Shown here: positions 19,871-38,896 of the stretch, piece by piece | Layout of the letters: each line of letters begins with the position of its first letter | Position numbering within the stretch: the stretch's first letter is position 1 | Assembly: GCA_963705105.1 (NCBI GenBank) | Contig: CAVPIW010000010.1 | Coordinates: 64,001-128,000, forward strand | Direction of reading: 5' to 3' | DNA: 64,000 bases | Source of the DNA: an uncultured Nitrospiraceae bacterium | GTDB lineage: Bacteria > Nitrospirota > Thermodesulfovibrionia > Thermodesulfovibrionales > Dissulfurispiraceae | Notes under the pieces: generated by a model | What the model saw: only the letters and a program-made list of their open reading frames with translations | Told to the model about the DNA's origin: nothing | Databases searched by the model: none | Position numbers and translations under genes: made by a program

Positions 19871-20043
19871 ATGCGCCGAAAAGCCTCGGTGCTGCGAAAC
19901 CTTTGCAGTCCCGTACAGACCATTTCGGGCTAAAGGTCGATGACACAAAGGAGGAATTCCCGATACACCAATAATAAACGATCACACTCGCTATCAGCGA
20001 GGCTCTGAGGCGCTTCGCCCCGCCTTTTCATGCAACGACAAAG
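19831..20043. repeat. Stand-alone E1 element between convergent miaA and lpxK
   Basis: ccttatcattgca...aaaggcggggtgaatgcgccgaaaagcctcggtgctgcgaaacc...ccccgccttttcatgcaac; similar to 43775-43990. Confidence 0.9.
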
Positions 20044-21063
20044 CTATCTCTTTCTCACAAGCTCCGAAAAGAGCCGGTCATAAAACTCCTGGTCGATGGC
20101 GAGGTCGACCTCCAGGGTAAGGAACCGCGCCGGCACGGTGAAGTCCCTCACTTTCACCATGTCCTTTTCGGTGGTCACGAAGAACTCGGCCTTTCTTTCC
20201 TTCCCTTTTTCGACAATCTCGTCGATATCGGCCTTTGTGTAGCGGTGATGGTCCCGGTATGCCCGGAAGCCTGCCAGGTCCCGGCAGAACACCTGCACCG
20301 TCTGCCTGAACGATTCGGCATTTGCGATGCCGCAGAAGGCGAAGACCCGTTTTCCTGCCAGGATGTCGGGGGACACCATGTTCCCCCAGGTGTCCTTCAA
20401 TCCCCTGACGGCGTATCTTGCGAGGAAGGCGGGCGCCCGAGGATTGATCGCCCGCAGTTTTGCATCGAGACTGCTGTTGCGTGCCTTCGTGATAAGGAAT
20501 ATGTCGGCATCAGCCAGCTCCCCGACAGGACCGCGCAACCGCCCCAGGGGGAGCAGCCTGCCGTTGCCGAAGGGATTGATGCCGTCGAGGAGCACGACAT
20601 CGACGTCCCGGTAGAGCCGCCAGTGCTGAAACCCGTCATCGAGGATGAAGAGGACAGGTTTCGCGGGATGTCCCAGCGACTGGAGGGCGAAGGCGCCGCC
20701 TTCGAAGCGGTCGGCGCATTTCACGACGGGCACGTCTCCCAGCCTCGCGGCGATGAGAACCGGCTCGTCACCGGCATCGTCGACGAGTGAGGAGAAGGTC
20801 TCTCCCTTCTGTGACGGCGTCGATGAAACGAAGAAAGGACCTTTTCTCTTGCCGCCATATCCCCGCGTCAGGACGACGGGGCTGTATCCCCGTTTCTTCG
20901 CCTCCGTTGCGACGGCGATCGTCGCGGGGGTCTTGCCGGTGCCGCCTGTCGTGATGTTGCCGATGCTGACGACCCTGACGGGGAGCCTCTTTTGGTTTCT
21001 GATGGCCCGGCGTTTCTTGAGGGAGTATCCGGCGTAGTAGAGAAATTCGATGACGTTCATCAT
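20044..21063 (-). CDS. lpxK: Tetraacyldisaccharide 4'-kinase
   Basis: SIGNITTGGTGKTP, TRGYG, GDEP, LDDGFQH, LLPLGRLR, TTEKD. Confidence 0.95.
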   Translation of the reverse strand: MMNVIEFLYYAGYSLKKRRAIRNQKRLPVRVVSIGNITTGGTGKTPATIAVATEAKKRGYSPVVLTRGYGGKRKGPFFVSSTPSQKGETFSSLVDDAGDEPVLIAARLGDVPVVKCADRFEGGAFALQSLGHPAKPVLFILDDGFQHWRLYRDVDVVLLDGINPFGNGRLLPLGRLRGPVGELADADIFLITKARNSSLDAKLRAINPRAPAFLARYAVRGLKDTWGNMVSPDILAGKRVFAFCGIANAESFRQTVQVFCRDLAGFRAYRDHHRYTKADIDEIVEKGKERKAEFFVTTEKDMVKVRDFTVPARFLTLEVDLAIDQEFYDRLFSELVRKR

Positions 21064-21087
21064 ACATTAAAAACAAAACCCCTGAAA

Positions 21088-21190
21088 GAAAGCAAAAGTG
21101 GCAGTGTGAGTGAGAATGAAAGGGAATGACAAGAGTGACATTGACAGTCCTTCGGGTTATGAAGAAAGCAAAAGTGGCAGTGTGAGTGCG
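21088..21190. repeat. Direct repeat x2 with hexamer-like periodicity
   Basis: gaaagcaaaagtggcagtgtgagtg at 21088 and 21164. Confidence 0.75.
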
Positions 21191-21269
21191 GGTGTGAAAA
21201 AGACGGTTCGTCCTCATGCCCCATCCGCGTCAAGGCGAAGAGTTGGTATAATGGAGTGAAGGAGCTGAA

Positions 21270-21554
21270 ATGAATGCAGTCGAAATACTCAAGAAGAATG
21301 AGATAAGAATAAAGCAGCAGTACCAGGTAAAGTCAATCGGCGTATTCGGGTCTTTTGCAAGGGGGGAAGAGACAGAAGGGAGCGATGTCGATGTCCTCGT
21401 TGAGTTCTACGAGGGAGCAAAGAAATTTGATAATTTCATGGATCTGAAGTTTTTCCTTGAAGACCTTTTCGGAAGAAAGGTCGACCTGGTAACAACTGCT
21501 GCGCTGAGGCCTCAACTGAAGGAAAACATACTGAGGGAGGTGCAATACGCATAG
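21270..21554 (+). CDS. Minimal nucleotidyltransferase antitoxin (MntA-like)
   Basis: GVFGSFARGE..SDVDVLV motif, DLV; 94 aa; adjacent HEPN gene. Confidence 0.9.
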   Translation: MNAVEILKKNEIRIKQQYQVKSIGVFGSFARGEETEGSDVDVLVEFYEGAKKFDNFMDLKFFLEDLFGRKVDLVTTAALRPQLKENILREVQYA

Positions 21555-21888
21555 AAGCATTCACCTCTATCTTGAGGATATCATTGAATCCGTCAACAGG
21601 ATTACGCGATATGTCGGGGACTCCGCCCCGGACGACATTAGAAAGGACGACATGCGCCTTGATGCAATAATTCGCAACTTCGAAATAATCGGTGAAGCGG
21701 CGAGCAAGGTGCCCGAAGACCTACGCAGAAAATACCCTTCCGTTGAGTGGCGTAAGATCGCAGACTTCAGGAACGTTCTTGCCCATCATTAATTTGGCAT
21801 TGATTATGAGATCATGTGGGATATAATCAAAACGAAACTCCCGCCTTTGAGAGAAGGCATTCTGTCGATTATTGAGAAAGAGAAATGA
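21547..21888 (+). pseudogene. HepT/DUF86 HEPN toxin pseudogene
   Basis: Manual translation: ACG in place of ATG, YLEDII...DAIIRNFEIIGEA...EWRKIADFRNVLAHH*FGIDYEIMWDII; in-frame TAA at 21790-21792. Confidence 0.88.
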
Positions 21889-21945
21889 TACTCAACTGAT
21901 GAAGAAAGGCCGGTGCAGACGTTGCGTCCGCACCGGCCGGGGGGA

Positions 21946-22434
21946 TTACTCGGACGATACGGAGATTTTCTTTGTCTCCGCCACTTCCTTTTCCGTCTTG
22001 GGAAGAACGATCATCAGGACACCTTTTTTGAAGGTCGCATCGATCTTGTCGCTGTCGATCTCACGGGGCAGGGGTATGGTCCTGGTGAAGGACCCGTAGG
22101 ATCTCTCCATCCTGTAATAATCCTTCCCCTTGTCCTCTTTTTCCTCTTTCTTTTCTCCCCTGATCGTCAGGGCATCCTTGCTCATGGACACATCGATGTC
22201 CTTCTCGTCCATTCCCGGAAGCTCCGCCGATATCTTGATTTCCTTGTCCGTCTCCATCACGTCGATGCGGGGGCTGAAAGTGCCGAGGCGACTTCCAAAG
22301 GGTTCGACATCGACTCCACGGAAGAAATTCTCGAAGAGTTCATTCATCTCCCGCTGCAGCAGGGCAAAGGGGTCATCCTCGCGCCGCACCTGCAGTCCTC
22401 TCTTGCCGAATGGCATCAAATCCCTGATTGACAT
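21946..22434 (-). CDS. Hsp20/alpha-crystallin small heat-shock protein
   Basis: PRIDVME, AELPGMD, ERSYGSFTRTIPLP, ATFKKGVL. Confidence 0.95.
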   Translation of the reverse strand: MSIRDLMPFGKRGLQVRREDDPFALLQREMNELFENFFRGVDVEPFGSRLGTFSPRIDVMETDKEIKISAELPGMDEKDIDVSMSKDALTIRGEKKEEKEDKGKDYYRMERSYGSFTRTIPLPREIDSDKIDATFKKGVLMIVLPKTEKEVAETKKISVSSE

Positions 22435-22455
22435 GACTGCAACACCTCCTTTTCG

Positions 22456-22860
22456 TCACTTTCCTGCCGCAACGGGGATCTTCCGCGTTTTGGCGATTTC
22501 CGCCTTCGGCAGGATCAGGGTTAATACGCCGTTTTTCAGTGATGCCTGTATCTTTTCCTTGTCAACTTCGTCGGAAAGGGTGAAAGACCGCTGATAATCA
22601 CCGATGCCGTACTCCGATGCGACGAGACGGTGCTTCTCCGGTATTTCCGCCTCGACCTTGCCGTAGATCGTCAGGACGTTCTTTTCGAGGGTGATGTCGA
22701 CGGTCTGCTCATCCACGCCCGGCATGTCGGCGATGACGACGATGTCATCCTTGCGCTCCATGATGTCGACGAGGGGAGAATAGAGTCTCCTCGCCCTTGT
22801 GCGCTCGCTTCCTTCAGCGGCCGGCGCCTCCTTTTTCAGAATATCTCTTGCGTCCGCCAT
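22456..22860 (-). CDS. Hsp20/alpha-crystallin small heat-shock protein
   Basis: PLVDIME, ADMPGVD, YQRSFTL, ASLKNGVLTLILPK. Confidence 0.95.
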   Translation of the reverse strand: MADARDILKKEAPAAEGSERTRARRLYSPLVDIMERKDDIVVIADMPGVDEQTVDITLEKNVLTIYGKVEAEIPEKHRLVASEYGIGDYQRSFTLSDEVDKEKIQASLKNGVLTLILPKAEIAKTRKIPVAAGK

Positions 22861-22878
22861 GAGAACACCTCCTCAGTT

Positions 22879-23307
22879 TTATTGAGCCTTGACGCTGATC
22901 TTTCGGGGTTTTTCCGCTTCCGCCCTGGGCAGTGAGATCGTCAGGATGCCTTTGACATACCGTGCGTCGACCTTTGCCGATTCCACGTCGAAGGGGAGTT
23001 CCAGGGTCCTTGTGAATTGTCCGCCCCACCGCTCTCTCCGGTGATATGACTCACCTTCCTTGACGCCATCAGGCTGACGGGACCCCTTCAGGGTGAGGTT
23101 CGAGCCGACAACGGATATGTCTATCGAAGCCGGGTCGACACCGGCTATCTCTGTCGTGACGATCACGTCATCCTCAGACATCCACATATTGGCTGCAGGG
23201 AACTCGTAGGCCACGGGCGACACTCGTGCGGCCGCCCTGTTCATCCGTTCGAACTCCCTCCAGGGATCAAAGAATCTGCCGAGTCTTTCGAGTTCTGACC
23301 ATAGCAT
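22879..23307 (-). CDS. Hsp20/alpha-crystallin small heat-shock protein
   Basis: FPAANMW, YHRRER.G.FTRTLELP, ARYVKGILTISLP; start MLWSE after RBS ggagg. Confidence 0.93.
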   Translation of the reverse strand: MLWSELERLGRFFDPWREFERMNRAAARVSPVAYEFPAANMWMSEDDVIVTTEIAGVDPASIDISVVGSNLTLKGSRQPDGVKEGESYHRRERWGGQFTRTLELPFDVESAKVDARYVKGILTISLPRAEAEKPRKISVKAQ

Positions 23308-23353
23308 TGTGCAAGACCTCCTTCCGGGTGGGCCGATGGCCCCAACCGAATAA

Positions 23354-23380
23354 TTAGCACTCTCATTCATCGAGTGCTAA
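23354..23380. promoter_or_regulatory. CIRCE operator (HrcA binding site)
   Basis: Perfect TTAGCACTC-N9-GAGTGCTAA upstream of the Hsp20 operon. Confidence 0.97.
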
Positions 23381-23383
23381 TTC

Positions 23384-23412
23384 TTTATAAAACATTCTTC
23401 AGAAAATGTCAA
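23384..23412 (-). promoter_or_regulatory. Sigma-70 promoter of the Hsp20 operon
   Basis: Minus strand TTGACA-N17-TATAAA directly upstream of CIRCE. Confidence 0.85.
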
Positions 23413-23464
23413 GAGGTTTGATTTGAATCATATCAAGAAAGCCTTCCCGTCAGGGAGTTCGTGG

Positions 23465-23509
23465 CCCCCTTTCGGCCGGCTATTCCTGAAGGCGTATGCG
23501 ACGATAAGG
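23465..23509. repeat. Partial E1 left arm (reverse)
   Basis: ggcgtatgcgacgataagg matches 37234-37252. Confidence 0.6.
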
Positions 23510-23564
23510 GACAATATTGGAGAACTGCGAAAGGCGTGAGATGCGCAATGACGGGCTGCCCGGT

Positions 23565-23951
23565 CTATTCCAGCGCTTTTGCAGCGGTGACGAAATACTC
23601 CGTTTCGCCGAAACAGTTTGTGGGGATGCCTTTGTGCTGCTCGTATGAGAGAACGACGCGCCTGCCTGCCAACTGGTTGAGCTGCTTCACCACAGCATCG
23701 TCGCGGACGCTGAAATAGAACTTCTCAGGCGTGGTGCCGGGAATAGCCACCATCAGGAGTTCTCCTTCCCAGGTCTTGCAGACCCAGCCCTTTTCCGAGA
23801 ACTTCTGGATATATCCCGCCCGTTCACCCCTCGAATAACTCCATGTCAGGGCGAACCACGTATACGCGACAGCGAGCAGCACGGGAACGATCAGGATGCC
23901 GACGGCGAGAAAAATCCAGCGTGATTTTCTTGTTTCCTGCGACCCTTCCAT
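23565..23951 (-). CDS. Membrane-anchored hypothetical protein
   Basis: N-terminal TM helix, YSRGERAGYIQKFSEKGWVCKTWEGEL. Confidence 0.8.
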   Translation of the reverse strand: MEGSQETRKSRWIFLAVGILIVPVLLAVAYTWFALTWSYSRGERAGYIQKFSEKGWVCKTWEGELLMVAIPGTTPEKFYFSVRDDAVVKQLNQLAGRRVVLSYEQHKGIPTNCFGETEYFVTAAKALE

Positions 23952-24187
23952 GGGTGAAATTATACCACAAAAAACCTGGACTTATGCCCACGCTGACATA
24001 AGTGATCAGGTCATGACTCTGCGCATACGAAAAAAAAGAGCCGTCATAGAATGTGCCGATTCGACATAGGGATGACTATACTCACTGATTTATTCTCATT
24101 TCTTCCCTGTCAAAAAATAGCAGTCATGACTCAACAATCAAGTATGATGCCCCCGGAATTCCAGAATTCTGGCACCGCTACGCCATA

Positions 24188-25583
24188 TATGATAACGTTC
24201 AGGACATCGTTAACTGTTTTTACGTTCAAGACATCGTTTACTCTCGTTCTTTGACATTGAAATAGCCACAGCCAGGTATATCATGAACACCCAATTCTTT
24301 TGCGGAGGTGTTCATGAAGAAGAATATCCTGCAGCAGAGAGTATTAGCAGTACGACGATACATAGAGGGCGAAAGTCCGCGAGACATCTGCTCTTCATTG
24401 GGAAAGACGAAGCCGTGGTTGTACAAATGGGTTGCACGGTACATTCCGGATGATCCGACATGGTTTGAAGATTGGTCCCGGCGACCTTTTACCAGCCCCA
24501 CACATACTCCTGAGGAGATCGAAAAGATCGCAGAGATGGTTCGGTTGAGCCTGTACAATAAAGGCGTCTTTTGCGGTAATCAGGCCATCCAGTGGGAGAT
24601 GATCGACATGGAGATCCAACCGCTCCCTTCCCTGAGCACCATCGGTCGTATCTTGCGCCGACTCGAATTGACTCATCGACGGACCGGGAGATATGAGCCC
24701 AAGGGGAAGAAGTATCCCGAACTTCCGGCGCTTTTGCCCAATCAAACGCACCAAGTTGATCTGGTTGGTCCCTGTTACCTTACCGGCCCAATCAAGTTCT
24801 GCAGCCTACATGCCGTTGATGCCGCAATCAACCGGTGTGGGATCGAGCCGATACCTTCACGCGCGGCGCAAAGCGTTGTGGATGCTGTTTACGCAATTTG
24901 GCTGCGGATGGGAATCCCGGAGAATCTTCAAGTGGACAACGAATGGGCCTTCTTTGGAAGTCCGGCGCACCCGCGAGGCATGGGTGCGCTTATTCGCCTT
25001 TGCCTGCGCTACGGCGTTCACCTCTGGTTCATTCCACCTTCGGAGCCATGGAGGAACGGGGTCGTCGAGAAATTCAATGATCATTATGAGCAGAAGTTTC
25101 TCGCCAAGGTCATGATGACCTCTAGGGAACAGCTTGACCAGGAATCGCTTGCGTTCGAGTATATGCACAACAGCACCTATCGCTATAGCAAGATCAAGGG
25201 AAAAACTCCTCTCAAAGCATTGGCTGACACAGAAAGGAAATTAATCTTCCCGAGCAAGAGTGATACCCCAAGAAATCCCTTGGATAAGCCGGAAGAGGGT
25301 TACTACCACTTCGTGCGATTCATTCGAAGCGATTGCCGGCTAAACATCTTCGGCGAAATGTTTCCTATTCCCCCGGAGACCCAGTACGAATACGACGTGG
25401 CTACTGTCGATGTCAAAGATCAAAAGCTGAAGCTCTTCCTGGACAGGCCCCAGGTCGAAGAATACAAATAGCAACTGCTGACTCATGATAAAGGTCACGG
25501 GCATCGTGAAATGCATCGCCCCAACGAGAGTAAACGATGTCCTGACCATTTCTTAAGCAAACGATGTCCTGAACGTTGTCACA
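24188..25583 (+). mobile_element. IS481-like insertion sequence
   Basis: Long imperfect TIRs with internal repeated units (tatgataacgttcaggacatcgtt...aagacatcgtttactctcgtt / aacgagagtaaacgatgtcc...aacgatgtcctgaacgttgtcaca); right end ACA. Confidence 0.8.
24314..25471 (+). CDS. DDE integrase-core (rve) transposase
   Basis: N-terminal HTH (WLYKWVARY), HQVDL, LQVDNE, WRNGVVEKFN. Confidence 0.88.
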   Translation: MKKNILQQRVLAVRRYIEGESPRDICSSLGKTKPWLYKWVARYIPDDPTWFEDWSRRPFTSPTHTPEEIEKIAEMVRLSLYNKGVFCGNQAIQWEMIDMEIQPLPSLSTIGRILRRLELTHRRTGRYEPKGKKYPELPALLPNQTHQVDLVGPCYLTGPIKFCSLHAVDAAINRCGIEPIPSRAAQSVVDAVYAIWLRMGIPENLQVDNEWAFFGSPAHPRGMGALIRLCLRYGVHLWFIPPSEPWRNGVVEKFNDHYEQKFLAKVMMTSREQLDQESLAFEYMHNSTYRYSKIKGKTPLKALADTERKLIFPSKSDTPRNPLDKPEEGYYHFVRFIRSDCRLNIFGEMFPIPPETQYEYDVATVDVKDQKLKLFLDRPQVEEYK

Positions 25584-26733
25584 TATAAGCTTCGCCAGTC
25601 AGCAATAGTGAGGCTATCTCGGGTTTAGAACTGCGCAAATCATTGAGCGAAGTAATGTAGCGTTTTGGCTCTGCCTGTGGAATTGCGATCCCATAATTGT
25701 TTTCAGACGTGGGAGGTCTCACCTCAAAACAAGCCAAACCAACCCCTAACGTTATTAGTTTACTGCCCAGAGGGGTTACTACAAGTCGACACCCACCAAG
25801 CATGTTTAAGCTATCGCGGTAGCGACACATCGCCGAATACATCTGACGATAAGCCTCAAAGGGATTGTTTTCATGAGCATAGAGAATGTTAGTTGTCGGC
25901 ACCTTTCTCACCCCAAACAAAGGACGCATGTATTCCACCAGCAGTTTATCGCCTCTTCTCAGGTCATTGGAAGGATGCGGAACTACCGGGCATATTTCAG
26001 CAGTGTCAGGGATTACTGATACCATCACCTTTTCGAACTGACCCATACGATTTTCACCAAGAATGGGAAACCAAACAAGAGGCCAGTCTTGCATGCTCTC
26101 CGAATACAGAGCACTTGAATATCCAGGGATGAGCACCAGATCGTTGCTGGGATCGTCAGATTGTATACGCCCATCGAGCGAAGCATCTTGTCCAACAAGT
26201 ACTTGAAAGTTAATCCCCTTGGCCCCTAAGGCATCCGGAGTCTTAATAGGCATAACTTTGTGAAGAATGGCGGTCAAAAGAGTTAGATAAACGGTTCGTG
26301 GCAGAGAACTGACATCTAAGATAATGTCAGTCTGATCACCAACGTGCGACAACACTTTCATCATTCCAATCGAAAGTATGTTACTTGCACTAAGATCAGT
26401 TTCCTCGACCAGGGATGAGTCAAAACTGATTTCATGCACTGAGCCGATTTCCCGGAAAAGCTGTTGAATTTCTCGAGCGTTCTGCTCGGTCTGCTCAATG
26501 AGGGCATCGTCGAGTTCGTATCCTGTGAGGCCGACCAACAACAATCGAGCCTCCTCAACCTTGTGGCCGTTTGAGCGCATGTTTTGTAAAAACTCAGATA
26601 GCACTTTCTGAGCCCTCACGTCGAATCCTCGTCCACAGATGTACAACAAGCGAATAACACGATCTCTGAACAGGTCGTCCCACAGATCGTGTACGCTGTC
26701 ACCCATCCTAAAGACGTAATTCTTCCAGAGCAT
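25579..26733 (-). CDS. Uncharacterised alpha/beta protein, last gene of the putative conflict operon
   Basis: Starts 2 nt after the ATPase stop; IILDVSSLPR and VVTPLGSK motifs; stop codon overlaps the IS end. Confidence 0.75.
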   Translation of the reverse strand: MLWKNYVFRMGDSVHDLWDDLFRDRVIRLLYICGRGFDVRAQKVLSEFLQNMRSNGHKVEEARLLLVGLTGYELDDALIEQTEQNAREIQQLFREIGSVHEISFDSSLVEETDLSASNILSIGMMKVLSHVGDQTDIILDVSSLPRTVYLTLLTAILHKVMPIKTPDALGAKGINFQVLVGQDASLDGRIQSDDPSNDLVLIPGYSSALYSESMQDWPLVWFPILGENRMGQFEKVMVSVIPDTAEICPVVPHPSNDLRRGDKLLVEYMRPLFGVRKVPTTNILYAHENNPFEAYRQMYSAMCRYRDSLNMLGGCRLVVTPLGSKLITLGVGLACFEVRPPTSENNYGIAIPQAEPKRYITSLNDLRSSKPEIASLLLTGEAYM

Positions 26734-26735
26734 TC

Positions 26736-28661
26736 TTACTTCGCCTCCATTGTTTTGAAGCGAGGTGGCGCCTGCCGACCCTGTCGCATCCACTCAACTA
26801 TGTCTTCATTTCTCACATCCTGCCATCCTCCCATCTGCAACGGTAGCCCATAGTAGCTGCACAAAGTCCGATTCAGATAGAAAACAACTCCGCTCTCGCG
26901 GGAGGCCGACGCCGCGCTGTCGCGTTGAACCAGTAGATTCTCCGCAATGCATTCAGACAGCACATTTAAGAGGAGCTGATATTGTTCTGCCATCGGTCCA
27001 TTGGAAGAGCGCAATTCCTCAATCTTGCCATGAGATAGTCTTATGCCAGTGATTCCAGGAGCGTAAGGAGCATTCGGCAAAAACGTCCTTTCACGGCAGA
27101 ACATCCCAATACCGTCCAGAAGTCGTTGAGCTCTTGTCCCTTGTGTATGTGACCTGGGAATATAATCCCTCTTTCGCTTTGCCGCATCTTTCAGAAGTTT
27201 CTCTTGCTCATAAGTTGACAGTACAAGTTCCGAACGCCTTAGCAACTGCTTTGCCTGCAACCCTTCGTATAGGGCCGCTGCAAGTCCAAGCAATTCTTCG
27301 ACGTTGTTAGTCGCCATCATACATAACCTCTCGATACCAAAATAGTAAGGAATTTTGAGGTCGTCATTCATGAAGATTTCTGCCGCGCCTTGCACTTGGG
27401 AACTGTCGCGCTCTTCGAGCTCTTCAGATGAAAGGGGAACTAAGGACAACTGCCGTTTCGCCTCATTACGAGCGATAAGGATTCGCGTCGTATAAAGCTC
27501 CACCAATGCATCGAGGTCACTCTTAGCTGCGTAGCTATCTGCCTTGTTAAACCATTCTACATACTGCGTATCGGACCGATAGCGTTCTGTGATCTCATAA
27601 AACTATGCTATGCCTTGCTGGATCTCTCGACGAATCTCGTCATGCTGCAATTGCGAACGGAGGTATTGCGAAAAATTGCCCGAGGGAATCACATCTTGCG
27701 CAGCCAACCGCCTATCGAGGATATTCTGTGCGAAGGAGGCAAACTGATGCAGCCCTCGCATCGAGGTCCATAATTCCTCCAGATCGATCTCATTGGAGTC
27801 ACGACCATCTCGAGTGCCCTGCGACAACAATTCGATGCCCAGTGCGTTTCTTCGCTCAGCGATCCACACCGGAATACTTGGTCTTGATTCGATCAATTCT
27901 TGAATCAATAATGCCCTTTGGTTCCGGCGCAGTTTGTGTAAATCGTCTATCATGAGCAGTCTCTGAGGAGCTAGCATTTTCCCATCTCTAATAAATCTAA
28001 CTCCCTGGAGCCATAACAAGCTCTCAAATCGCACATGGGCTGGCATTTCACGCGATGTCGGTCCAGGAATTGCATCCAAATGGGCGTATACTTCTCGCTC
28101 ATATTGCTCAGCCCAAAGAGCGAGTTCACTTGCGGTATCTACTAACGGAATGGATTTAATGTCAATAGCCGCTCCGTCGTACTCAAGTTGGATGCCGTCG
28201 AGTTGGTCTACAGAAGAAAAGCCAACAAACAAAGATAAAGACCTTAAGGTGCGAAGCACAACCCGACAATCAAGCAATGCCCGAAAAAGCCCAGCTTGAG
28301 AAAAAGCTGCTCCAGGTGGCAAATCAGCGTATCCAGAGGCACAGGATAGAAGCACTCCCAATAGCTGCGGTCCTTCACCTTCACTTAACACACCTCGAGC
28401 AACGAGGCGTTGATACGATTCGTTCATTTCTGAGGATTTGCGCGCGTTCCAGAAAGCGCGCAGAGCCATAGGGGTGAAAGCGCGCAACAGGGTCGTCTTG
28501 CCAGCGACCGGGGAACTCCTGAAGATGTGAACGGCACCTTTGAATACTTCTTCGGGTAGTTTTTCAAGGATCTTCGGAGAAAAGAGACGTACAAATTCTT
28601 GATAGGAAGTGGTACGTTCGGACATACGATCTAAAAAGGGATTCGCCTGATACCTCATCAA
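26736..28661 (-). pseudogene. P-loop ATPase (ORC/CDC6- or STAND-like), with one in-frame TAG
   Basis: Walker A-like SSPVAGKTT, Walker B LLMIDD; ORFs 27603..28661 and 26736..27506 are in the same frame, separated only by TAG at 27603-27605. Confidence 0.8.
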
Positions 28662-29764
28662 AACTCCCTGTGTCGACTCACTCTGGGGAATAGGCCATGG
28701 AAGCGAAGAAACTCAGGCCCCCACAAAAGGTAAACCGAATTATTAGGAGTGTTGTGAGAAAGGACTAACGGAAGAGAGCATTTCGCAAATCCCCAGCGGG
28801 CATCAGTAGTTCCTCCAACGAGAATGTGTTTGTCAGAAGCTTTGTCATCGTAATAATTCGGATGAAGAATAATCTCTTCTAACTGGGGGACTGTTTCTCC
28901 TGTAAGGGCAGTTTCGGGTTCAATCGGACATAGCACCCTAAGCTGAAGAGGCTTGTAACCGTTCGGAGAAGTGAATTGCTCAGCCCAATACTCGATATGG
29001 TCCACCGCCTGACGCGTTGCAACATACAAAAGGAGAAATACCTCATAATGCGACGTATCGATCAAATCCCCACGATGCAATCTCTCATATATTTTCTTGA
29101 TATTGCCTTTGAATTTCTTCTCAGCGCTGTCAAAACGAATATACGTATAACCACTGCCGGAGAAATCATCAAGCAGCCAAATCATGTTGAAGCGTGGTTT
29201 GTTCGTTGAAAACCCAGCCTTTCCCAGAGTTTCCCCTAACTCTCGGGTCATGTCGCTCGCCTTTTCCTCGCCCAGTTCGTATGCTTGCCAGATCTGCTCA
29301 TTGCCGATGTCTCCTTCACTGGCACGACGGAGCTCATTTGTTCTCGCGCCATCACTAAGCCCCAGATATAGAGATTTTATGCTCAGTTCCGCGAACCGCC
29401 GCCCATGAACGATCGTTCCGATGCGATGGGGTGGTATATACATCTCCTCCGCGACGAGACGTATACGCTCCTGAAGAATCCAGTCTGGATATGCAGTCTG
29501 TACAAGGTGTGATAATTCCGCTGCGGAGATATAAATCAACCGATCCGTTACAAGATGCAGAGCTGTGGAGCGGTGCACACGGTCAAACTGATTGATCCAA
29601 TGCGACAGGCTTTCAATGAATCTTTTCACTGGGGCAAATTGCTCGTAATGGTCGTATTTGTAATCAGCCAACAACTGCAATTGAGGGATGTGCTCACTGA
29701 CGATCTCGGGATCATCACAGCTCATAACTTTAGCCAGCAGCGCTTGAGCATTTTGATCTTTCAT
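28658..29764 (-). CDS. Phosphoribosyltransferase-fold protein (PRTase conflict-effector-like)
   Basis: PRPP-binding loop IWLLDDFSGSGYT; C-terminal LVLSHNTPNNS and LFPR; 4-nt overlaps with both neighbours. Confidence 0.75.
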   Translation of the reverse strand: MKDQNAQALLAKVMSCDDPEIVSEHIPQLQLLADYKYDHYEQFAPVKRFIESLSHWINQFDRVHRSTALHLVTDRLIYISAAELSHLVQTAYPDWILQERIRLVAEEMYIPPHRIGTIVHGRRFAELSIKSLYLGLSDGARTNELRRASEGDIGNEQIWQAYELGEEKASDMTRELGETLGKAGFSTNKPRFNMIWLLDDFSGSGYTYIRFDSAEKKFKGNIKKIYERLHRGDLIDTSHYEVFLLLYVATRQAVDHIEYWAEQFTSPNGYKPLQLRVLCPIEPETALTGETVPQLEEIILHPNYYDDKASDKHILVGGTTDARWGFAKCSLPLVLSHNTPNNSVYLLWGPEFLRFHGLFPRVSRHREF

Positions 29765-31733
29765 AGTGGAGTACCGACTTCTTCTCTCTTATAGTCTGTC
29801 AGACGGAGATAAAAAGAATTTTTATCTGTTGTAAATAAGCGTGTCAAATACCATAGAGTCGCGTCTACGTCTCGTTTATGAGGCGGGGCGAGCTTCCACT
29901 CACGGTCGATACTTAGAGATGGCACATCGACGCTCAAGGAGTACCGGTGCTCAAGCAGCGTTGAATCGTTTCCGGGCCAGGCACCCTGATCACCCATAGT
30001 CAAAATTTGATCCGGTTTAACTCTGAATTATTGAATGATTACCGTTATCAAGCGAGATTTGCTGATGTCTCTGGCTAATATGTCAATTGAATGCTTACTA
30101 AGCACCATCCTCGAAAAATCCAAACCCGCCTTGCGAAGTGCATCAGCTAACACAAACCACATGCTTTCGGTATTAATTCCTTCTTGAAACCGTATACTGA
30201 CTTGATAAGGTTGAGTCGGCTTGATTGTATCGATCGGGACCCCGAATGCTTGGAGCCCCCCCACGATTCGCACAGCATGGCTAAGGAATTCGCTTGTTTC
30301 TGTTCCTTCCGGCTGAGGCCTGCCAATATCCGATATCAGACCACAGCTATAAAGTCCCAGCCTAAATCTACTCCACAACGTCTGCGGCAGGAGTCTTGAC
30401 AGATGTTCCCGGATTGACCTTCCTCTGCCTGACGCTATGCTGATAATAATTCCTGCTTCGGCGAGCCGAATAAGTTGTTTAAGAACTGCGTCGGTCGGTG
30501 AAACATCCTTTCGCTGAGAACTGCATAGCGTCCCATCATAGTCAAATACGATAGCTTTGAACTCCTGTCGCTCAAGTGCTATTTTGTAAGCGTCGAGTTT
30601 ACGCTTCATGAAACCTTGTCGAAGAGTGGAAGGCCATCGTGCACCGAGAACCGCGTACTTCAAGTATTCGCGCTGGTCCAAAGTAACGGCACCGACACTA
30701 GTTTCTGAAGATCGGCATAATATAGATCCCTCCCAAATTGAGGGACGACTGGGTTCCCCGGGTCAACGTTCAGTTCTTTAGCTATATTCGCAACAAGGTG
30801 CATCTGTGCTACCAACCCCGCGATCAAATCCCACGGAGCGCTGCCTCCCGTATGCATGGTAAAGGTTGGCACTTCCGATGGCAGAATACGTTGCATATGT
30901 GACCACAGATCAGCCATAGATGGGTCAGTGAGAGCCAGGATAGCACAATCTGCAGGCCGAGTTGCTAACCAAAGATGGCGGCCGTGGGCAAATGAGCGAA
31001 TATCGGCTACTTGACAGTGCAGAAGCGCCGACTCAGCAAGCTTCGACTCAAGGTCTGCCGCGATTGCCCTCATAAAAGGTGAATAGATAATAATGATGTT
31101 CTCTCTTTTTGCGACTTCTTTGACAAACTCGTCAGCATGTTTGAGCCATTCAGTAATTTGTAACCCCGAGAGGGTGACTTGATTCAAATTATCAGGAAAT
31201 TGCTTCTTCTTCTGATCCAGTTCTCCATAGGCCCGGGCGACTACCACAGCATTCAACAATAGGCTGTTAGTTGCCAGATAACCATCTTTCTGAGCGAGCT
31301 TGAAATAATGAGTAGTGACATCGGTGAGGCTTTCAATACTTGCGACTAATGGGCTATTTTCTTGGTTTGTTATAACATGAATGCTGCGTGCACTGTGTCG
31401 TCTGGCTCTAAGCAACGCCTCTATGATGTCAGGGTTTTTCTCTTCGGCGGAGACCAAAAATACAGGGCTTGTTGCCGCCAGCGTGGGATTGCATATGATC
31501 TCAAGCGGCGTTGATGGTCTTGAAACCCTACCTGTATACGATTCGTGGAGATTACAAAGCAGCGATGCGATCGTGAAGGAACCGCCTGATCCCACGCCAA
31601 TAACGCTCAGGCCGCTCGCTCCGGCAATCGCTTTCTTGAGCAAGCTAACATCTGCCTCAAGCGCTGCGGAGTATGTTTCTCCTATCACCTCAAGTTCATT
31701 CTCATAGTGGTTTCTCGATCTTGGCAGCTGCAT
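29761..31733 (-). pseudogene. SIS (sugar isomerase) domain - HAD hydrolase fusion with a frameshift (~30685) and an in-frame TAA (30028)
   Basis: GVGSGGS and FAHGRHLW (SIS); FDYDGTL, ASGRG, MGDQGAWPGND (HAD motifs I, II, IV). Confidence 0.8.
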
Positions 31734-31746
31734 AAGTCCCGTGTCG

Positions 31747-32358
31747 CTACCTATTGGCGCTAACGGCCTCTTGTGATATCATTTTTCTACAATTATTAAT
31801 TGTACGCTGTATGGGCCTGTTTTTAGAAGGGGTTCCTTTCCGCAACTCCGCTCGCAATTCCATCAGTAGAATGCCCAACATGTTCTGGCCCTTTCCGTTC
31901 ACCTCACCCCATATCCGGTTAATGGAATTGTCCACCGTGCCAGCCTCGACGAGCCGTGCATCTCGAGTTGAAAGTAGCAATTCGCATAGGTCGTCGTGTT
32001 GCGTAAATTTGGCGTAAAGAACTTGCCGCATCCGCTCAAATTTTATAGCAGCTCAATTGTGGACGATCTCCCAAGTATAGAGTCCGTGGGCTGCCATAGC
32101 CACCAAGGAAGGGGAAGGAGCGCTCAATATCCATTCCCTTACCGAATCCTTTCGTGCTTTTCCTGCCTGGTAAGCGTGCTCAGCCGAAGGATAAATCCGG
32201 CCTTCAAAAAAAATATTTCTGCGATAGAGATTGCTCAAAGCACCATAGGGTTTTTCATTTGCCCTATAAAAGTGAATCTCAGAAATTTCGTCCCCAGGTG
32301 AGGCGATGTGATTGCTGTTCAATGATGTTCCAGTTAACCTAACGATGTTCCTTTTCAT
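31747..32358 (-). pseudogene. NADAR (YbiA-like) family protein with an in-frame TGA
   Basis: PYGALSNLY, YPSAEHAYQAGK, N*AAIKFERMRQVLYAKFTQH, LVEA, WG, GQNMLGILLMELR; TGA at 32053-32055 where Trp is expected. Confidence 0.88.
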
Positions 32359-32552
32359 ATTTTGGTCTCCCTTTCAGACGGTTGCTTAGGTTGGATCCCT
32401 ATCTGTTCACAATATTTTAGGACAAGAACCTCGATTAAACTGGTTACGCTTCGCCGTTCATGTTTTGCGGCGAGTTCCGCAAACCTCTTTACCATCGGTT
32501 CAACACGAAGTGTCATGACAGCCGTTTTAATTCTTGGCTTTCCGCGCGGCAT
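32355..32552 (-). CDS. Small ribbon-helix-helix (CopG/DUF1778-like) regulator
   Basis: KTAVMTLRVEP.VK..AELAA..ERRSVTSLIEVL; ATGA overlap with NADAR. Confidence 0.75.
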   Translation of the reverse strand: MPRGKPRIKTAVMTLRVEPMVKRFAELAAKHERRSVTSLIEVLVLKYCEQIGIQPKQPSERETKI

Positions 32553-32739
32553 TTATAATTTCTCCAAATATGTACTGCACTAAGTAATATATATTCTATA
32601 TTCATACTATTATTTATACTGCATTTTTATATCCATTCTGTCAAGAGTCTTCGTCTCCCGTTAAATTGCATGATTGCAATCTATTGGAAGAGACGGACAC
32701 TGGTTGAGGCCACGGCAAGAACTCTCATTTTGAGCGGTC

Positions 32740-33989
32740 TTATAATGGCAGCAGGAGCCCCACGATCGCCCCTGCCATGCAGGTGGAGAGTGTTCCCACG
32801 ATGATGGACCTGATCCCGAGTGAGACTATTTCGTCCCGCCTCTCGGGCACCATGCCGCCCATCCCGCCGATCATGATCCCGAGGCTGCCGAAGTTGGCGA
32901 AACCGCAGAGGGCATAGGTCATGATCACCCTGCTTCTCGGGCTCAACGTGCCTTCCGGCAGTCCGGCGAGGTCGAGATAGGCGATGAATTCATTCAGGAC
33001 GGTCTTTGTCCCCATCAGTGCGCCTGCTGCCTGCGCCTCCTGCCAGGGGATGCCGATGAGCCAGACGACGGGCGCCATGACCATGCCGAGTACCCGCTGG
33101 AGGGTCACGGGACGGCCGCCGATCTCAGGCAGCAGGGTCAGCATTTGGTTGGCGAGGCTCACGAGGGCCACGAGGACGATGAGCATTGCGATGATGTTGA
33201 TCAGGAGATGGATACCTTCCATCGTGCCTTTTGTGATTGCATCCATCGTGCTCGTTGCGGTCTGCGGGGGGACGAGTTTTCCCGAGGTGACGCTCCCCGT
33301 CCCGGGTATGAGGATCTGGGACAACATGATTGCGGCCGGTATGGTTATGATCGACGCCGTGAGGATATGCCCCATCGCATCGGGGATGACGGCCCTCAGA
33401 ACGCTCGCATAGAGCACCATAACCGTGCCGGCTATGCCCGCCATGCCGCAGGTCATGGTGACAAACAACTCGCTTCTCGTCAATTCCTTCAGGTATGGAC
33501 GAATAAAGAGAGGCGCCTCGATCATCCCGAGAAAGACATTGGCCGCCGCCCCGAGGCCGACGGCGCCGCCCACGCCCATGGTCTTTTGGAGCGCCCAGGA
33601 AAAGGCCCTGACGATGACGGGGAGATGCGCCAGTAAAAGAGGAGAGAGGAGAGGGCGCTCACCACCAGGACGAGCGGGAGGGCCTGGAAGGCGAAGAGGA
33701 AGCTTGACACTTCAGGCTTCACCTCGAAGGGAAGGGCGCCGCCTCCCAGATAACCGAAGACGAAAGACGTGCCCGCTTTCGTGGCCTCTTCGAGTGACAT
33801 GACCATGCCGTTCAGCAGGTGGAAGAGCTCTTTGAAGAGAGGGAGCCTGAGCATGAGGAAGGCGAAGATGAACTGCACCGCGAGACCCGCGAGGATTCCT
33901 CTCACCCTGACGCCCCGTCTGTTCTCGCTCAAAAGCCAGGTGACGGAGATAAGCACCACGATGCCGAATATGGTCTGCGCGATGATCAT
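32740..33989 (-). pseudogene. nupC: Concentrative nucleoside transporter (NupC/CNT), 1-nt deletion near 33625
   Basis: GTSFVFG, AANVFLGMIEAPL, MAGIAGTV, KTVLNEFIAY, YALCGFANFGS; two overlapping frames. Confidence 0.88.
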
Positions 33990-35225
33990 CGGGAATGAGA
34001 ATTATAAACTTTCACCTTGGATATCTCAAGACCACCGGGCCGATTGGGGACGTTGTGTCCCGCATGTCATTATGGGAATCAGGAATAGACGTAGTCAATG
34101 ACATTCCGGACACAACGTCCTTGAGATCGATACTATAATGCTATAATGCTTTTCCGTATATTGACGCTGCAGAAGGAGAACAGCCATGATCCGCTCTCGA
34201 AGGCGCCAGGTCACTTTCGCATATCTCATCGCTGTACTATTGCACTTTGTTGCCTGCGGCACAGACAGCGTCATGACATGGACCAAGACCTTTGGAAGTG
34301 TGAGCACCGATAATGCTGGCGAAGTCATGCAGACGTCCGACGGTGGATATATCTTTACAGGGTCGGTGCATTGCCGGGGAGGCCGCAACTGCGATGTTTA
34401 CCTTGCCAAGTTCGACGCGAACGGCAATGTCCTCTGGGAGCAAACGTACGGAGGTGCAGACAATGATAGAGGCAACTCAGTGCAAGAAACGCTTGACGGG
34501 GGCTATGTGGTTCTGGGAACGACTTCTTCATTTGGCAATGTACAGGGTGGGCACGTTTATCTCATTAAGACTGATGGAAAGGGTGATATCCTCTGGCAGA
34601 AAACATACGGTGGCAAAAGGCAGCAGGACGGCAGGAAGGTCCGGCAGACCTCCGATGGGGGCTACATCATCGTAGGGAGTTCAAATTCATTCTCCGGGGA
34701 GGAAGACACACGGGATGTCTATCTGATCAAGACCGATAGGAGAGGCGAAATAGAGTGGGAAAGGACATACGGGGGACCCGGATATGATGACGGAACCTCA
34801 GTTCATCAGACGCTTGACGGTGGATACGTTGTGGTTGGCCGCAAAGGATCTTTCAGGGAAGGAGTTGAGAACTCAGGAAATGTGGCAGACCTCTATCTCA
34901 TAAAGACGGATGCGGCCGGTGCCTCTCTGTGGGAAAAAACATACGGAGGGAAGGGTTTGAGTGCCGGACATTCCGTTTTACAGACGGAAGACGGCGGCTA
35001 CTATGTCACAGGTACGACGGACGCATTCAGTACGCCTAATGAATATGAAGCATATGTGATCAGAACAGACGACGAAGGGATCGTGCTTTGGGAGAAGACT
35101 TATAAGGGACCCGTCGCTGATTATTGGCATCCGAATATCGGCATAGTTGATACCGGATATTTTATCGCTGGTACCACCGGTCCGAACGGGGCACACATGC
35201 AGATTTTTCTCATAAAAATGGATAA

Positions 35226-36732
35226 CTCAACTTTCGCACATAGAAATCTGGAGCGGGGCACTGAGAAATGAGGGCAGAGCACCCATAAAGTTGGTCATAA
35301 ATTGCTCCAGTCTTCGGGAGGAGAGTGAAAGAAACCTCCTCAATTCTTCCTTCAGCACGTCCATGACGATAAGCATTGCATCCACAAACCCAAGGCCCTG
35401 TGCCTCATCGCAATGAGCATAAAAGAGCATCCCGATCGTTCGAGGGTCCTCACTTTCCCGCTTTTCCATCGCCAGCATGATGTACCGGCAACACACAATC
35501 GTTGTATGAGCGATCATCGCGTCATACCGCCGCCCCATGAACTCCTTCGCAAGCTTCAGGTGCGATTTCGCCATCTTGAAAAATACCTCGATGTCCCACC
35601 GCCTCCCATAGGTCGTGATGATGTCCTCGTCACTCAGTGCCGTATCCGTCGACAAGACGGCAAGCCACTTCCTGCTCCTGCGGTCCCGCACAAACACGAT
35701 CTTCGCCTCGACGACCTTTCCTTCCTCATCAACGCCGAGCCTGACAATGACGGATGCCAGAACCTTCGCCCGTCCCCTTTTCTTCCTTACAGAGGCATAC
35801 AGTTTGCTCAGCGTCACTTTCCTGTCCCCAGAGCCGTACAAGACTTTGGTATCTTTGAGCATGCAAATGCAATGAAACTTCTCCTTCAGGACGTTCATGA
35901 TCACGGAGGGGCTCGAAAACCACCGGTCAAACAACACATACTGCGCGTCAATCCCGGACGTCTTGATCTGTTTGATCAGGTCAAACATCGTCTCCGTTGC
36001 CTTCTTGATGCTTTCCGCCCGCCTCTTGTATCCGTTGGTCCGTTTGTCAATCTCGTTGTTCATTTCGCAGAGGCGATTGTCCGCCTTCACCGAGCTCAGC
36101 AGAGAAAACGCCACAGGCAGAAAACTCACCCCGTCAGACCAGCCCACCGTCAGCATCCGGAATCCCCGGCGGTATTTCTGCTCACAGTGATCGTACACCC
36201 GTGCCAGAAGTTCCACCACCTTGCTCCTGTTCCGGCTGAACAGGGAATCATCGATGATGAGCACCTTGATCCTCTCCGCAGAGGTCAATGTTGCGACCCG
36301 GTCTTTGATGATCGATGCGCTCAGCAGCAACAGAAACTTTCTCCAGTTGTAGCGAGACGAGTTCAAGAACCGATACACCGGGTCTTTGCCCGGATGGCCC
36401 TCAGCCGCTGCCATGTGCAGTGTTCGATACAGGTTCTTTCCTGTAAATACCAACAAAAAGATAAAGCGAAACAATGCAGCGCAGGGGATACCCCGCTCCT
36501 TGGTGAAGTTGGACTGCTTGAGAATCCGGGCGACATGATGGGTGCGGAGAAATGTGCTTGCGTAATTCTGAACATCCTCATTTTGTGGTACAATGCTCAT
36601 AGAACATCCCCTCCTCGTCTTTGTATGTTTCGCGACAATATTGTACAAGGTTTGGGGATGTTCTTTTTAGTTTTTTCTGTTCATTCCCTTATCAGACGCC
36701 TTTTCATGACGGTTTTCTATCTGCGAAACTTG
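35226..36732 (-). mobile_element. IS4-family-like insertion sequence with target-site duplication
   Basis: TIR tcaactttcgcacataga / tctatctgcgaaacttga; direct repeat aatggataa at 35217-35225 and 36733-36741. Confidence 0.9.
35227..36600 (-). CDS. DDE transposase (IS4 superfamily)
   Basis: LIIDDS, VLFDRWF, YGRRWDIEVFFKMAK (YREK motif). Confidence 0.92.
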   Translation of the reverse strand: MSIVPQNEDVQNYASTFLRTHHVARILKQSNFTKERGIPCAALFRFIFLLVFTGKNLYRTLHMAAAEGHPGKDPVYRFLNSSRYNWRKFLLLLSASIIKDRVATLTSAERIKVLIIDDSLFSRNRSKVVELLARVYDHCEQKYRRGFRMLTVGWSDGVSFLPVAFSLLSSVKADNRLCEMNNEIDKRTNGYKRRAESIKKATETMFDLIKQIKTSGIDAQYVLFDRWFSSPSVIMNVLKEKFHCICMLKDTKVLYGSGDRKVTLSKLYASVRKKRGRAKVLASVIVRLGVDEEGKVVEAKIVFVRDRRSRKWLAVLSTDTALSDEDIITTYGRRWDIEVFFKMAKSHLKLAKEFMGRRYDAMIAHTTIVCCRYIMLAMEKRESEDPRTIGMLFYAHCDEAQGLGFVDAMLIVMDVLKEELRRFLSLSSRRLEQFMTNFMGALPSFLSAPLQISMCES

Positions 36733-37047
36733 AATGGATAAAAACGGCAATATTGTCTGGGAGAGAATATATGGAAAGACATCTACCAATTTCAGCTCCG
36801 TTCAGAGAACGCGGGATGGTGGCTACATAATCTCGGGCAGCACAAATGTGGATGTCAGAGCTTCGTTTTCGGGAGGCAATGGTTCGGATTTTTGTCTAAT
36901 AAAGACCGATCGTTTCGGCAACGCGCAATGAGGATTTATTGCAGCGCTATTGGAGTTCAATCGGGGACGTTGTTTCCCACATGTCAGTATGGAAATGAGG
37001 ACAAGGAACAGACGTGGTCAATGACACCCAGGACACAACGTCCCCTT

Positions 37048-37254
37048 TGGCAAATGAAAAGGCGGGGCGAAACGCCTCAAAGCCTTGCTGAAGGCGACGA
37101 TACGCCTCGTCATCTTCGTGTTTCAGGATTTCACTCTTTGTGTCATCGACCATTAGCGTTTAGTTCATCTTTCGTTTTGATACAGGTGTCGCCGCAGCAA
37201 GGTTTTCGGCGCATACACCCCGCCTTTCCGGATGGCGTATGCAGCGATAAGGTT
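37048..37254. repeat. E1 element, reverse orientation
   Basis: aaaaggcggggcgaaacgcctcaaagccttgctga...ccccgcctttccggatggcgtatgcagcgataagg. Confidence 0.85.
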
Positions 37255-37314
37255 AAGACAAGGAAGAACGAAAATATTGTGATTTAGGTATATTGAAGGT
37301 ATAATTTATATACT

Positions 37315-37575
37315 ATGGAATTCGAGTTCGATTCGGAAAAGAATGATAAAAACAAGGAAAAACACGGGATCGACTTCTATGAGGCACAAGCGTTGTGGGA
37401 TGACCCCGACTTGATCGAGATTCCGGCAAGAACAGCGGATGAACCCAGGTTTATGGTCATTGGAATGATTGCAGGCACACATTGGTCAGGAGTGATATCG
37501 CATCGGGGCAATGCCGTGAGGATGATCTCTGTACGGCGATCCCGCAAAGAGGAGATTGACATATATGAAGGCTAA
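37315..37575 (+). CDS. brnT: BrnT-family toxin
   Basis: MEFEFD.EKN..NKEKHGIDF, EPRF, VRMISVRRS. Confidence 0.9.
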   Translation: MEFEFDSEKNDKNKEKHGIDFYEAQALWDDPDLIEIPARTADEPRFMVIGMIAGTHWSGVISHRGNAVRMISVRRSRKEEIDIYEG

Positions 37576-37789
37576 GGAATTCGACAAAAGGTTTGACGAA
37601 GGTGACGATGTTTCGCAGTATCTTGACATCTCAAAGGCCAAGAGACCGGTGCAGGAACAGAAACGGGTCAACGTCGATTTCCCGCTGTGGATGATTCAGT
37701 TGCTGGATAAGGAAGCCAAACGGTTAGGGGTACCCAGGCAGTCTATCATCAAACTATGGGTGGCAGAGCGGCTGAAAAAGGCATCCTGA
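37565..37789 (+). CDS. BrnA-like (CopG) antitoxin
   Basis: EFDKRFDEG, KRVNVDFPLWM, LGVPRQSIIK; overlaps brnT. Confidence 0.85.
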   Translation: MKAKEFDKRFDEGDDVSQYLDISKAKRPVQEQKRVNVDFPLWMIQLLDKEAKRLGVPRQSIIKLWVAERLKKAS

Positions 37790-37885
37790 GTTGTTCCAAC
37801 CAGTCAATCCGGCGGATCGGCCATAAACCGGCCTCAGGCTGATATTTTCGTCAGCCTGTAAAAAGCAACAACACTTTTCGCTGCA

Positions 37886-37920
37886 CGACGGGGGCCGTTT
37901 CCCCGAACGGCCCCCGTCGT
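37886..37920. terminator. GC-rich hairpin between convergent genes (terminator or REP-like)
   Basis: acgacgggggccgtt...aacggcccccgtcgt. Confidence 0.65.
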
Positions 37921-37955
37921 ATTCCTTTCACTGACACTGAAACTGCATCACTGGC

Positions 37956-38222: not shown

Positions 38223-38271
38223 CGAAAATCTCCTTTTGTCGGAAATATGGAAAATTAGCGAACAACCTTTT

Positions 38272-38862: not shown

Positions 38863-38896
38863 GTCCTCCTTGAATATGTTGCAGGTGGTTGGTTGC

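Follow-up and report, generated by a model that had tools for sequence, protein, structure and literature searches.

Retron-Eco11, a type III-A3 retron, keeps a phosphoribosyltransferase (PRTase) effector together with a sensor module (PMC12746101, PMC7736814). In the available text of PMC12746101, activation of this effector lowered phosphoribosyl pyrophosphate (PRPP) by about 50%, and mutants in the PRPP loop lost defence. DS-32 (DefensePredictor), which consists of a PRTase and a NADAR alone, is described in the accessible part of the preprint as validated against phage in E. coli (bioRxiv 10.1101/2025.01.08.631726); the Science version mentions it only in passing (PMC13092281). Here we describe a locus in which a PRTase-like gene and a NADAR are likewise combined, within a longer cassette. 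It lies in a stretch of 64,000 nucleotides (the window; positions 64,001 to 128,000 of contig CAVPIW010000010.1, assembly GCA_963705105.1) from an uncultured Nitrospiraceae bacterium. Six co-oriented genes, already listed in a first-pass annotation of the window, do fill 25579-32552 on the minus strand: a ribbon-helix-helix (RHH) repressor, a NADAR, a double-SIS and HAD fusion (SIS-HAD), a PRTase, an ATPase and a CARF6-family protein (Table 1). Some role in defence or conflict is probable for the cassette overall. More specifically, and with somewhat less than even confidence, the locus is read as the decayed copy of a mobile, abortive anti-phage cassette.

The PRTase belongs to the same family as that of Retron-Eco11 and shares its PRPP loop and Gx14PNN motif. 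Nevertheless, the reverse transcriptase, the non-coding RNA and the winged helix fused to the retron PRTase are absent here, whereas a predicted ATPase–CARF6 sensor and three accessory enzymes are present. The PRTase neighbours are SIS-HAD and the ATPase, both in the window and in 49 related loci, in place of the reverse transcriptase and RNA of a type III-A retron. DS-32, unlike the cassette, is without ATPase, CARF, SIS-HAD and RHH genes. DarTG1 (DarT1-NADAR) and the YarT-YbiA pairs also place a NADAR beside a predicted toxin whose reaction creates an N-ribosyl bond. They differ from the cassette in having an ADP-ribosyltransferase, and the NADAR here carries the YbiA-type glutamate rather than the aspartate that the available text of PMC11125620 gives for DarT1-linked NADARs. 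Can1, Csm6 and Cap5, CARF and SAVED sensors of type III CRISPR and CBASS, have a tandem CARF-type fold in one chain as CARF6 does. Here, however, no effector is fused, the cassette holds no cyclase, and in most hosts neither Cas10 nor SMODS was found.

The names PRTase-CE, ORC-CDC6-like ATPase and CARF6 reportedly go back to Nicastro et al. 2023 and Makarova et al. 2020. Neighbourhoods of these three families (PF24390, PF24389 and PADLOC CARF6) agree with the cassette in all three members, which stand in a fixed order. The clade of the window differs from them in adding RHH with its operator, a YbiA-type NADAR and SIS-HAD, and in lacking PfkB. The combination had at first not been recognised as a named system; that statement needs qualifying, as the core trio of PRTase, ATPase and CARF6 already has Pfam and PADLOC families. 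What the present analysis adds is the clade with RHH, operator and NADAR, the exchange of NADAR and PfkB, the count of cyclases in hosts and the predicted ATPase–CARF6 complex.

Table 1. Coordinates of the cassette genes, the candidate operator and the adjoining insertion element in the window
Feature	Position	Strand	Evidence or remark
Candidate RHH operator, two TGCAGTA(C/T) copies	32572..32623	-	In AT-rich leader; putative binding site
RHH repressor, 65 aa, open	32355..32552	-	Weak PF01402, E 0.012
NADAR (YbiA-type N-glycosidase), broken	31747..32358	-	PF08719 on both halves
Double-SIS + HAD-IIB phosphatase fusion, broken; ~650 aa if intact	29761..31733	-	PF01380, PF08282, TIGR01484
PRTase-CE, 368 aa, open	28658..29764	-	PF24390 E 6.9e-13; PADLOC PRTase_III-A
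ORC/CDC6-like AAA+ ATPase, broken; ~640 aa if intact	26736..28658	-	PF24389 on both halves, each above cut-off
CARF6-family tandem-CARF protein, 384 aa, open	25579..26733	-	PADLOC PDLC01910 E 1.5e-108
IS481-like element, outside the system	24190..25581	+	rve/HTH Pfam matches

Layout, spread and variants of the cassette

The GC content is 47.9% in the cassette and 35% in its leader, compared with 57.1% for the genome, so that the AT-richness described at first sight is real. The ATGA overlaps at 32355/32358 and 29761/29764 are also as described. At 28658/28661, where PRTase and ATPase meet, a TGATG overlap of 1 nt with the ATG at 28658 is more likely, because homologues start there.

A scan of genomes with a single CARF6 sequence gave no relatives among 184 pattern matches, whereas the repeat with a CARF6 alignment on GTDB genomes succeeded and yielded 68 loci. 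Intact syntenic homologues are frequent among them: 49 loci have complete genes for NADAR, SIS-HAD, PRTase, ATPase and CARF6, arranged in this order, and 35 of the 49 also have an RHH homologue upstream of NADAR. The other 19 comprise nine loci that end at a contig edge, three with five genes and breaks, six remnants and one of PfkB type. By record titles the hosts belong to Pseudomonadota, Acidobacteriota and others; in the phylum of the window's host the CARF6 profile was found in 4/401 genomes. A scan anchored on the PRTase gave 80 metagenome and 2 viral loci. Counted only where the flank was long enough, the close clade has the ATPase in 68/68 loci, CARF6 in 63/64, SIS-HAD in 65/66, NADAR in 59/60, RHH in 45/55 and PfkB in 0/43.

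To judge from sequence comparison, the cassette is mobile: it is patchily distributed, low in GC, present on plasmids (the PRTase matches 20 PLSDB records, six of them opened) and reduced to remnants in 6/68 loci. The genes flanking it are unrelated from locus to locus. Of the 26 loci scanned with NCBIfam, 9 have a gene for a recombinase, a transposase, conjugation, a primase or RadC close by, a count taken without a control. In two loci, both with AbiE, the cassette lies just downstream of guaA (L030 398-1996, L032 2592-4172); guaA is a common site of island integration. On a viral contig (L170 6024-10156), SIS-HAD, PRTase and the front half of the ATPase are surrounded by phage-like genes, and no CARF6 was found.

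PRTase, ATPase and CARF6 are contiguous in 7/7 opened divergent layouts that hold all three (L004, L171, L172, L174-L177), while SIS-HAD, NADAR and PfkB shift or swap around this trio. The five-gene layout SIS-HAD/PRTase/ATPase/CARF6/PfkB (L004, L069, L174-L176) has its first four genes in the same order as here. It is only 30-40% identical, however, and its PfkB at the 3' end replaces the 5' RHH-NADAR of the window clade. Mixed loci have both NADAR and PfkB, arranged as NADAR/SIS-HAD/trio/PfkB in L172, as trio/SIS-HAD/PfkB/NADAR in L177 and as SIS-HAD-sized gene/PfkB/NADAR/HTH/three unnamed trio-sized genes in L178. The L172 NADAR is 69% identical to that of the window compared with 25-34% for the core proteins, so that NADAR has passed between clades and moves as a module. 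In L177 the NADAR-bearing cassette has a gene for GTP cyclohydrolase II 3 kb upstream (2020-2619). YbiA-type enzymes have a link to riboflavin intermediates, but this single case may be due to chance. In addition, one protein of 559 aa (P0250) joins the first ~300 residues of CARF6 to a PfkB-like part and is probably a deletion product of the five-gene PfkB cassette.

Sensor pair, effector, accessory enzymes and repressor

The sixth gene, initially listed as of unknown function, matches the PADLOC CARF6 profile and, by predicted structure, encodes a stand-alone tandem-CARF protein of that family. Pfam gave no match for it. Its AlphaFold model (predicted local distance difference test, pLDDT, 84) had Can1 (6sce) as best match in VIA, with Z 15.0 and an rmsd of 3.3 over 231 aligned residues, and the top 28 rows were all CRISPR/CBASS proteins of CARF or SAVED type. 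Foldseek returned diffuse matches to USP and transporter proteins at TM ~0.25, the first CARF protein standing at rank 48; the fold is therefore called from VIA, since Foldseek was ambiguous. Only one of the best 150 representatives at 50% identity exceeds 450 aa, and it resembles a truncated CARF6 fused to PfkB. Having no effector domain, CARF6 must act on a partner.

The ATPase is the candidate partner. That of an intact locus, L005, reaches 77.2 bits with PF24389 against a cut-off of 27, the ESM Atlas agrees on the family, and the homologues keep Walker A in 48/49 and Walker B in 49/49 cases. A complex model of the L005 ATPase and CARF6 scored 0.66, compared with 0.00 for the best control; the runs agreed in at least 84% of contacts and the partners had pLDDT of at least 84. 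The mark set for this score was reached by 116/157 solved complexes and 2/215 mismatched pairs, counts that apply only roughly here. In L005 numbering the predicted interface includes ATPase residues 108-116 and 183-198 and CARF6 residues 202-215. On the ATPase side its conservation exceeds the average (0.80 vs 0.70). The model supports binding of ATPase and CARF6 to each other. Of the earlier proposals, that of an ATPase coupled to sensing is supported. PDB sequence searches with the PRTase, ATPase and CARF6 alignments found nothing significant, and no complex like that of ATPase and CARF6 was found by sequence in the PDB.

With PF24390 the window PRTase scores 49.5 bits and that of L005 66.9, the cut-off being 27. 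The window protein has the PRPP loop DDFSGSG and a retron-type Gx14PNN motif, which is described for retron PRTase effectors in the accessible text of PMC12746101 and PMC7736814; among the homologues the loop is kept in 46/49 and the second motif in 49/49. The model (pLDDT 82) matches type I PRTases, at best with Z 10.2 and an rmsd of 3.3 over 143 aligned residues. By analogy, the effector role first proposed for the PRTase is consistent with a family that includes a proven defence effector, as the PADLOC match to retron PRTase_III-A has E 4.5e-16 (Retron-Eco11, PMC12746101).

The NADAR is, by sequence, of the YbiA subfamily. All three intact homologues examined pass TIGR02464 (82-93 bits vs 73.7), intact homologues match E. 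coli YbiA (2b3w, E 1.5e-23), and the glutamate of the last strand, L[VI]E, is present in 48/49. PRTases form an N-ribosyl bond and NADARs hydrolyse one, which makes a writer-eraser pair plausible. The first-pass annotation had put nucleotides or ADP-ribose at the centre of the system. For ADP-ribose this is not borne out: no DarT ADP-ribosyltransferase was found among the six genes by Pfam, PADLOC or NCBIfam, and the cassette has no NAD enzyme, so that ribose-phosphate or PRPP chemistry fits better. According to the available text of PMC11125620, YbiA-type enzymes cleave guanine ADP-ribose, are linked to the clean-up of riboflavin intermediates and can act as antitoxins.

SIS-HAD is a single open reading frame (ORF) in 49 loci, and its motifs are kept in 46-49 of 49 homologues, those of the HAD part being intact. 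The SIS part weakly resembles NagB-II and deglycase-type double-SIS proteins. Elsewhere its fold is fused to an ADP-ribosylglycohydrolase (TM 0.88) or to PfkB (TM 0.84).

In the window leader, TGCAGTA(C/T) occurs at 32623-32616 and 32579-32572. The motif recurs upstream of RHH in other loci, where it often forms an inverted pair or immediately follows TATAAT. Exact GCAGTAC was found in 29/35 RHH-bearing GTDB loci vs 0/14 without an RHH match, the background being 0.9 expected from shuffles and 32/1085 flank bins. For the metagenome loci the numbers were 36/45 with RHH and 1/9 without. These loci are related by descent, and Fisher values for the co-occurrence overstate it. By simple inference GCAGTAC is a candidate operator for autorepression by RHH, and the way it tracks the RHH gene argues for the autoregulation suggested at first. 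Of the promoter proposed upstream, the TTGACA box is present at 32644-32639, but no canonical sigma-70 site was found in 32300-32900 (1.1 expected by chance). In L022 the leader upstream of RHH has a CTGT-N8-ACAG site, which we take to resemble a LexA box.

Proposed mechanism and alternatives

In the reading that we tentatively prefer, infection, with phage as the trigger by analogy, would be sensed by the predicted complex of ATPase and CARF6, which would then switch on the PRTase. The activated PRTase would drain PRPP as in Retron-Eco11. NADAR and SIS-HAD would then clear ribose-phosphate products, NADAR possibly by reversing the N-ribosyl bond, and RHH likely represses the operon.

Several observations weigh against this anti-phage drain. 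In CARF6, the residues of the predicted interface show lower conservation than the protein average (0.62 vs 0.71). Three sugar-phosphate enzymes exceed the needs of a simple drain, and NADAR scores above the threshold of TIGR02464, a metabolic family. The PRPP depletion by Retron-Eco11 itself (PMC12746101) was modest (P =.04, n = 3) and does not reveal which product PRPP is turned into. The kinship with DS-32 does not extend to its models: NF053875 and NF053876 fail, with 58-72 bits vs 240 for NADAR and 12 vs 250 for the window PRTase, and DS-32A gives no match at E 0.01 for two intact PRTase homologues. Literature searches found no study or phenotype of this cassette; Nicastro 2023 and Makarova 2020 may show the neighbourhood.

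The genomic context is a further point on that side. Defence genes, among them Gabija, McrBC, AbiE, type I and II restriction, RT-Cas1, Borvo and PD-T7-1, lie beside 12/44 loci compared with 3/11 control regions (p = 1.0). Enrichment in defence islands, by which the first-pass annotation had proposed to judge the system, is thus not shown by a comparison whose control regions are few, from other taxa and each about twice as long. The loci contributed 178/272 ORFs of at least 200 aa nearest the cassette plus four edge-cut ORFs, from 44 of the 49 intact loci after removal of three near-duplicates and two without such ORFs. PADLOC at 1e-30 matched 20 proteins, and after two housekeeping-like ones were dropped 18 remained in the 12 loci. 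The control comprised 118/154 ORFs from 11 of 14 regions, where 17 matches less two left 15 in three regions. One control region, from the relative G008, holds an extensive CRISPR-Cas cluster of type III-B/III-D whose effectors include CARF-RelE and Csx1-like proteins (L078 103-17949).

The role best known for CARF proteins is to read messengers made by cyclases. Here a CARF protein travels without a cyclase or an effector domain, is predicted to dock on an ATPase and stands beside a PRPP-using enzyme. The cassette might be a self-contained, cyclase-free form of immune signalling in which the PRTase writes a new ribose-phosphate messenger or nucleotide analogue. The ATPase-docked tandem CARF would be its reader, and NADAR, SIS-HAD or PfkB would remove or recycle the signal. 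We regard this broad possibility as doubtful. If it is true, CARF proteins would have a PRTase-written ligand that belongs neither to cyclic oligoadenylate nor to CBASS chemistry.

One alternative to the PRPP drain, which we consider rather unlikely, makes the PRTase a signal writer whose phosphoribosyl messenger binds the CARF6 pocket. The ATPase or HAD would be the effector, for example by depleting dNTP or ATP, and NADAR would destroy the signal. In 125 divergent full-length representatives, invariant polar residues are retained at each of the two CARF half-sites (D38 in 125, R40 in 124, D140 in 125, K326 in 123), and these motifs presumably line the CARF ligand pocket. No cyclase, Cas10 or CD-NTase, is present within the cassette. 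Searches with the PF22335 and PF18144 profiles found Cas10 in 7/52 host genomes and a SMODS cyclase in 7/52, both together in one, hence one or the other in only 13. With so few, the CARF6 ligand would have to be supplied by the cassette itself or by the infection. The remaining 39 gave neither by PF22335 or PF18144, but many are draft or metagenome assemblies, and a missing cyclase is no proof; in the window's own host Cas10 is present on another contig. HAD phosphatases can be effectors, as in the nucleotide depletion by PUA-Cal-HAD described in the accessible part of bioRxiv 10.64898/2026.01.15.699771, and SIS-HAD occurs in nearly every layout. Nevertheless, its position relative to the trio varies (L177, L178), and the sole activity measured for the PRTase family, as far as the available text of PMC12746101 goes, is toxicity with loss of PRPP.

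Damage control or salvage of metabolites, outside anti-phage defence, appears improbable. The cassette would remove (ADP-)ribosylated lesions or a nucleoside-like poison, with ATPase and CARF6 as regulator. This agrees with a NADAR above the cut-off for riboflavin-intermediate N-glycosidases, with the SIS fusions to ADP-ribosylglycohydrolase and PfkB in other clusters and with the lack of demonstrated defence-island enrichment. PRTase-CE, however, is a family of retron effectors rather than of salvage enzymes, the sensor is CARF/SAVED-like, the distribution is patchy, mobile and often decayed, and a YbiA-type NADAR can itself be an antitoxin (PMC11125620, as far as available).

Little probability is likewise given to a mini-pathway for a non-canonical ribonucleotide. 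SIS would reshape a sugar phosphate, the PRTase would add a base, HAD or PfkB would set the phosphorylation and NADAR would cleave the product for self-protection, the product being an antiviral analogue or the CARF6 ligand. The enzyme set does read as one chain acting on pentose phosphate, and conservation extends to all catalytic motifs. At least three independent layouts (L172, L177, L178) have both NADAR and PfkB with the core, and NADAR moves as a module. On the other side, PfkB is absent from all testable loci of the close clade and NADAR from several PfkB loci, which means that neither is essential to such a chain.

Intact copies occur in strains from culture collections, for example Trichlorobacter thiogenes ATCC BAA-34, Thermomonas fusca DSM 15424 and Arenimonas oryziterrae DSM 21050. 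They make testable both the product that a PRTase conflict effector forms from PRPP and the ligand of a cyclase-independent CARF protein.

Decay of the window copy and its surroundings

The window's own copy is a decaying relic of little weight beside the intact homologues. Three of its six genes are broken by three in-frame stops and one frameshift. NADAR has a TGA at 32055-32053, in a column that is tryptophan in 49/49 homologues; SIS-HAD has a frameshift near 30687 and a TAA at 30030-30028; and the ATPase has a TAG at 27605-27603 and a Walker A that departs from the family motif. Private amino-acid and synonymous changes number 183:111, compared with 232:281 in three close intact relatives together (p = 4e-6). 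By gene the ratio is 38:18 in CARF6, although it is still open, and 21:22 in the PRTase, which is least affected. At conserved columns the copy differs 35 times, in 11 cases by a radical change, and is tied for most among 50 sequences; RHH has none at its 10 conserved columns. Of 57 matches to conserved host genes, four were dropped as shadow frames, and a true stop or frameshift was found in none of the other 53. The stops, the frameshift, the damaged Walker A and the excess of amino-acid change indicate that the cassette is likely dead here, a decaying pseudogene cluster.

Recoding of stop codons was rejected, as all three codons (TGA, TAA and TAG) are involved and the residues that homologues carry at these positions differ. 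That the breaks are assembly errors in a functional cassette is very improbable: the frameshift near 30687 is absent from one run X1 contig of low depth (2.4; four other differences in 287 nt), but three of the four breaks are substitutions, and the excess of private and conserved-column changes and the intact host genes stand against it.

The IS481-like element had been taken as one boundary of the island. It is instead a later insertion, because a 6-bp target duplication flanks it (24184-24189 and 25582-25587) within the last codons of the CARF6 gene, whose stop codon is supplied by the end of the element. The same duplication led to its rejection as vehicle of the cassette. Four related copies (82-87%) lie elsewhere in the genome. 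On the other side, the broken nupC noted earlier is real and runs in two frames over 33989-32740. Two of its pieces are duplicated at 98-99.5% identity ~6 kb away (39386-39727), where they are fused and the intervening part is missing. No tRNA was found in the 64-kb window, and Rfam gave no matches at 20000-40000.

A DDE transposase gene (PF13546, 35227-36648), with a 90% copy on contig C5, interrupts a beta-propeller-like repeat gene (34186-35271, resuming at 36734-36931). Within ~5 kb of the cassette are a BrnT toxin with a CopG-type antitoxin (37315-37789) and, on the other side, a minimal nucleotidyltransferase gene (21270-21554). Three tandem ORFs at 21946-23370 resemble small heat-shock proteins by eye.

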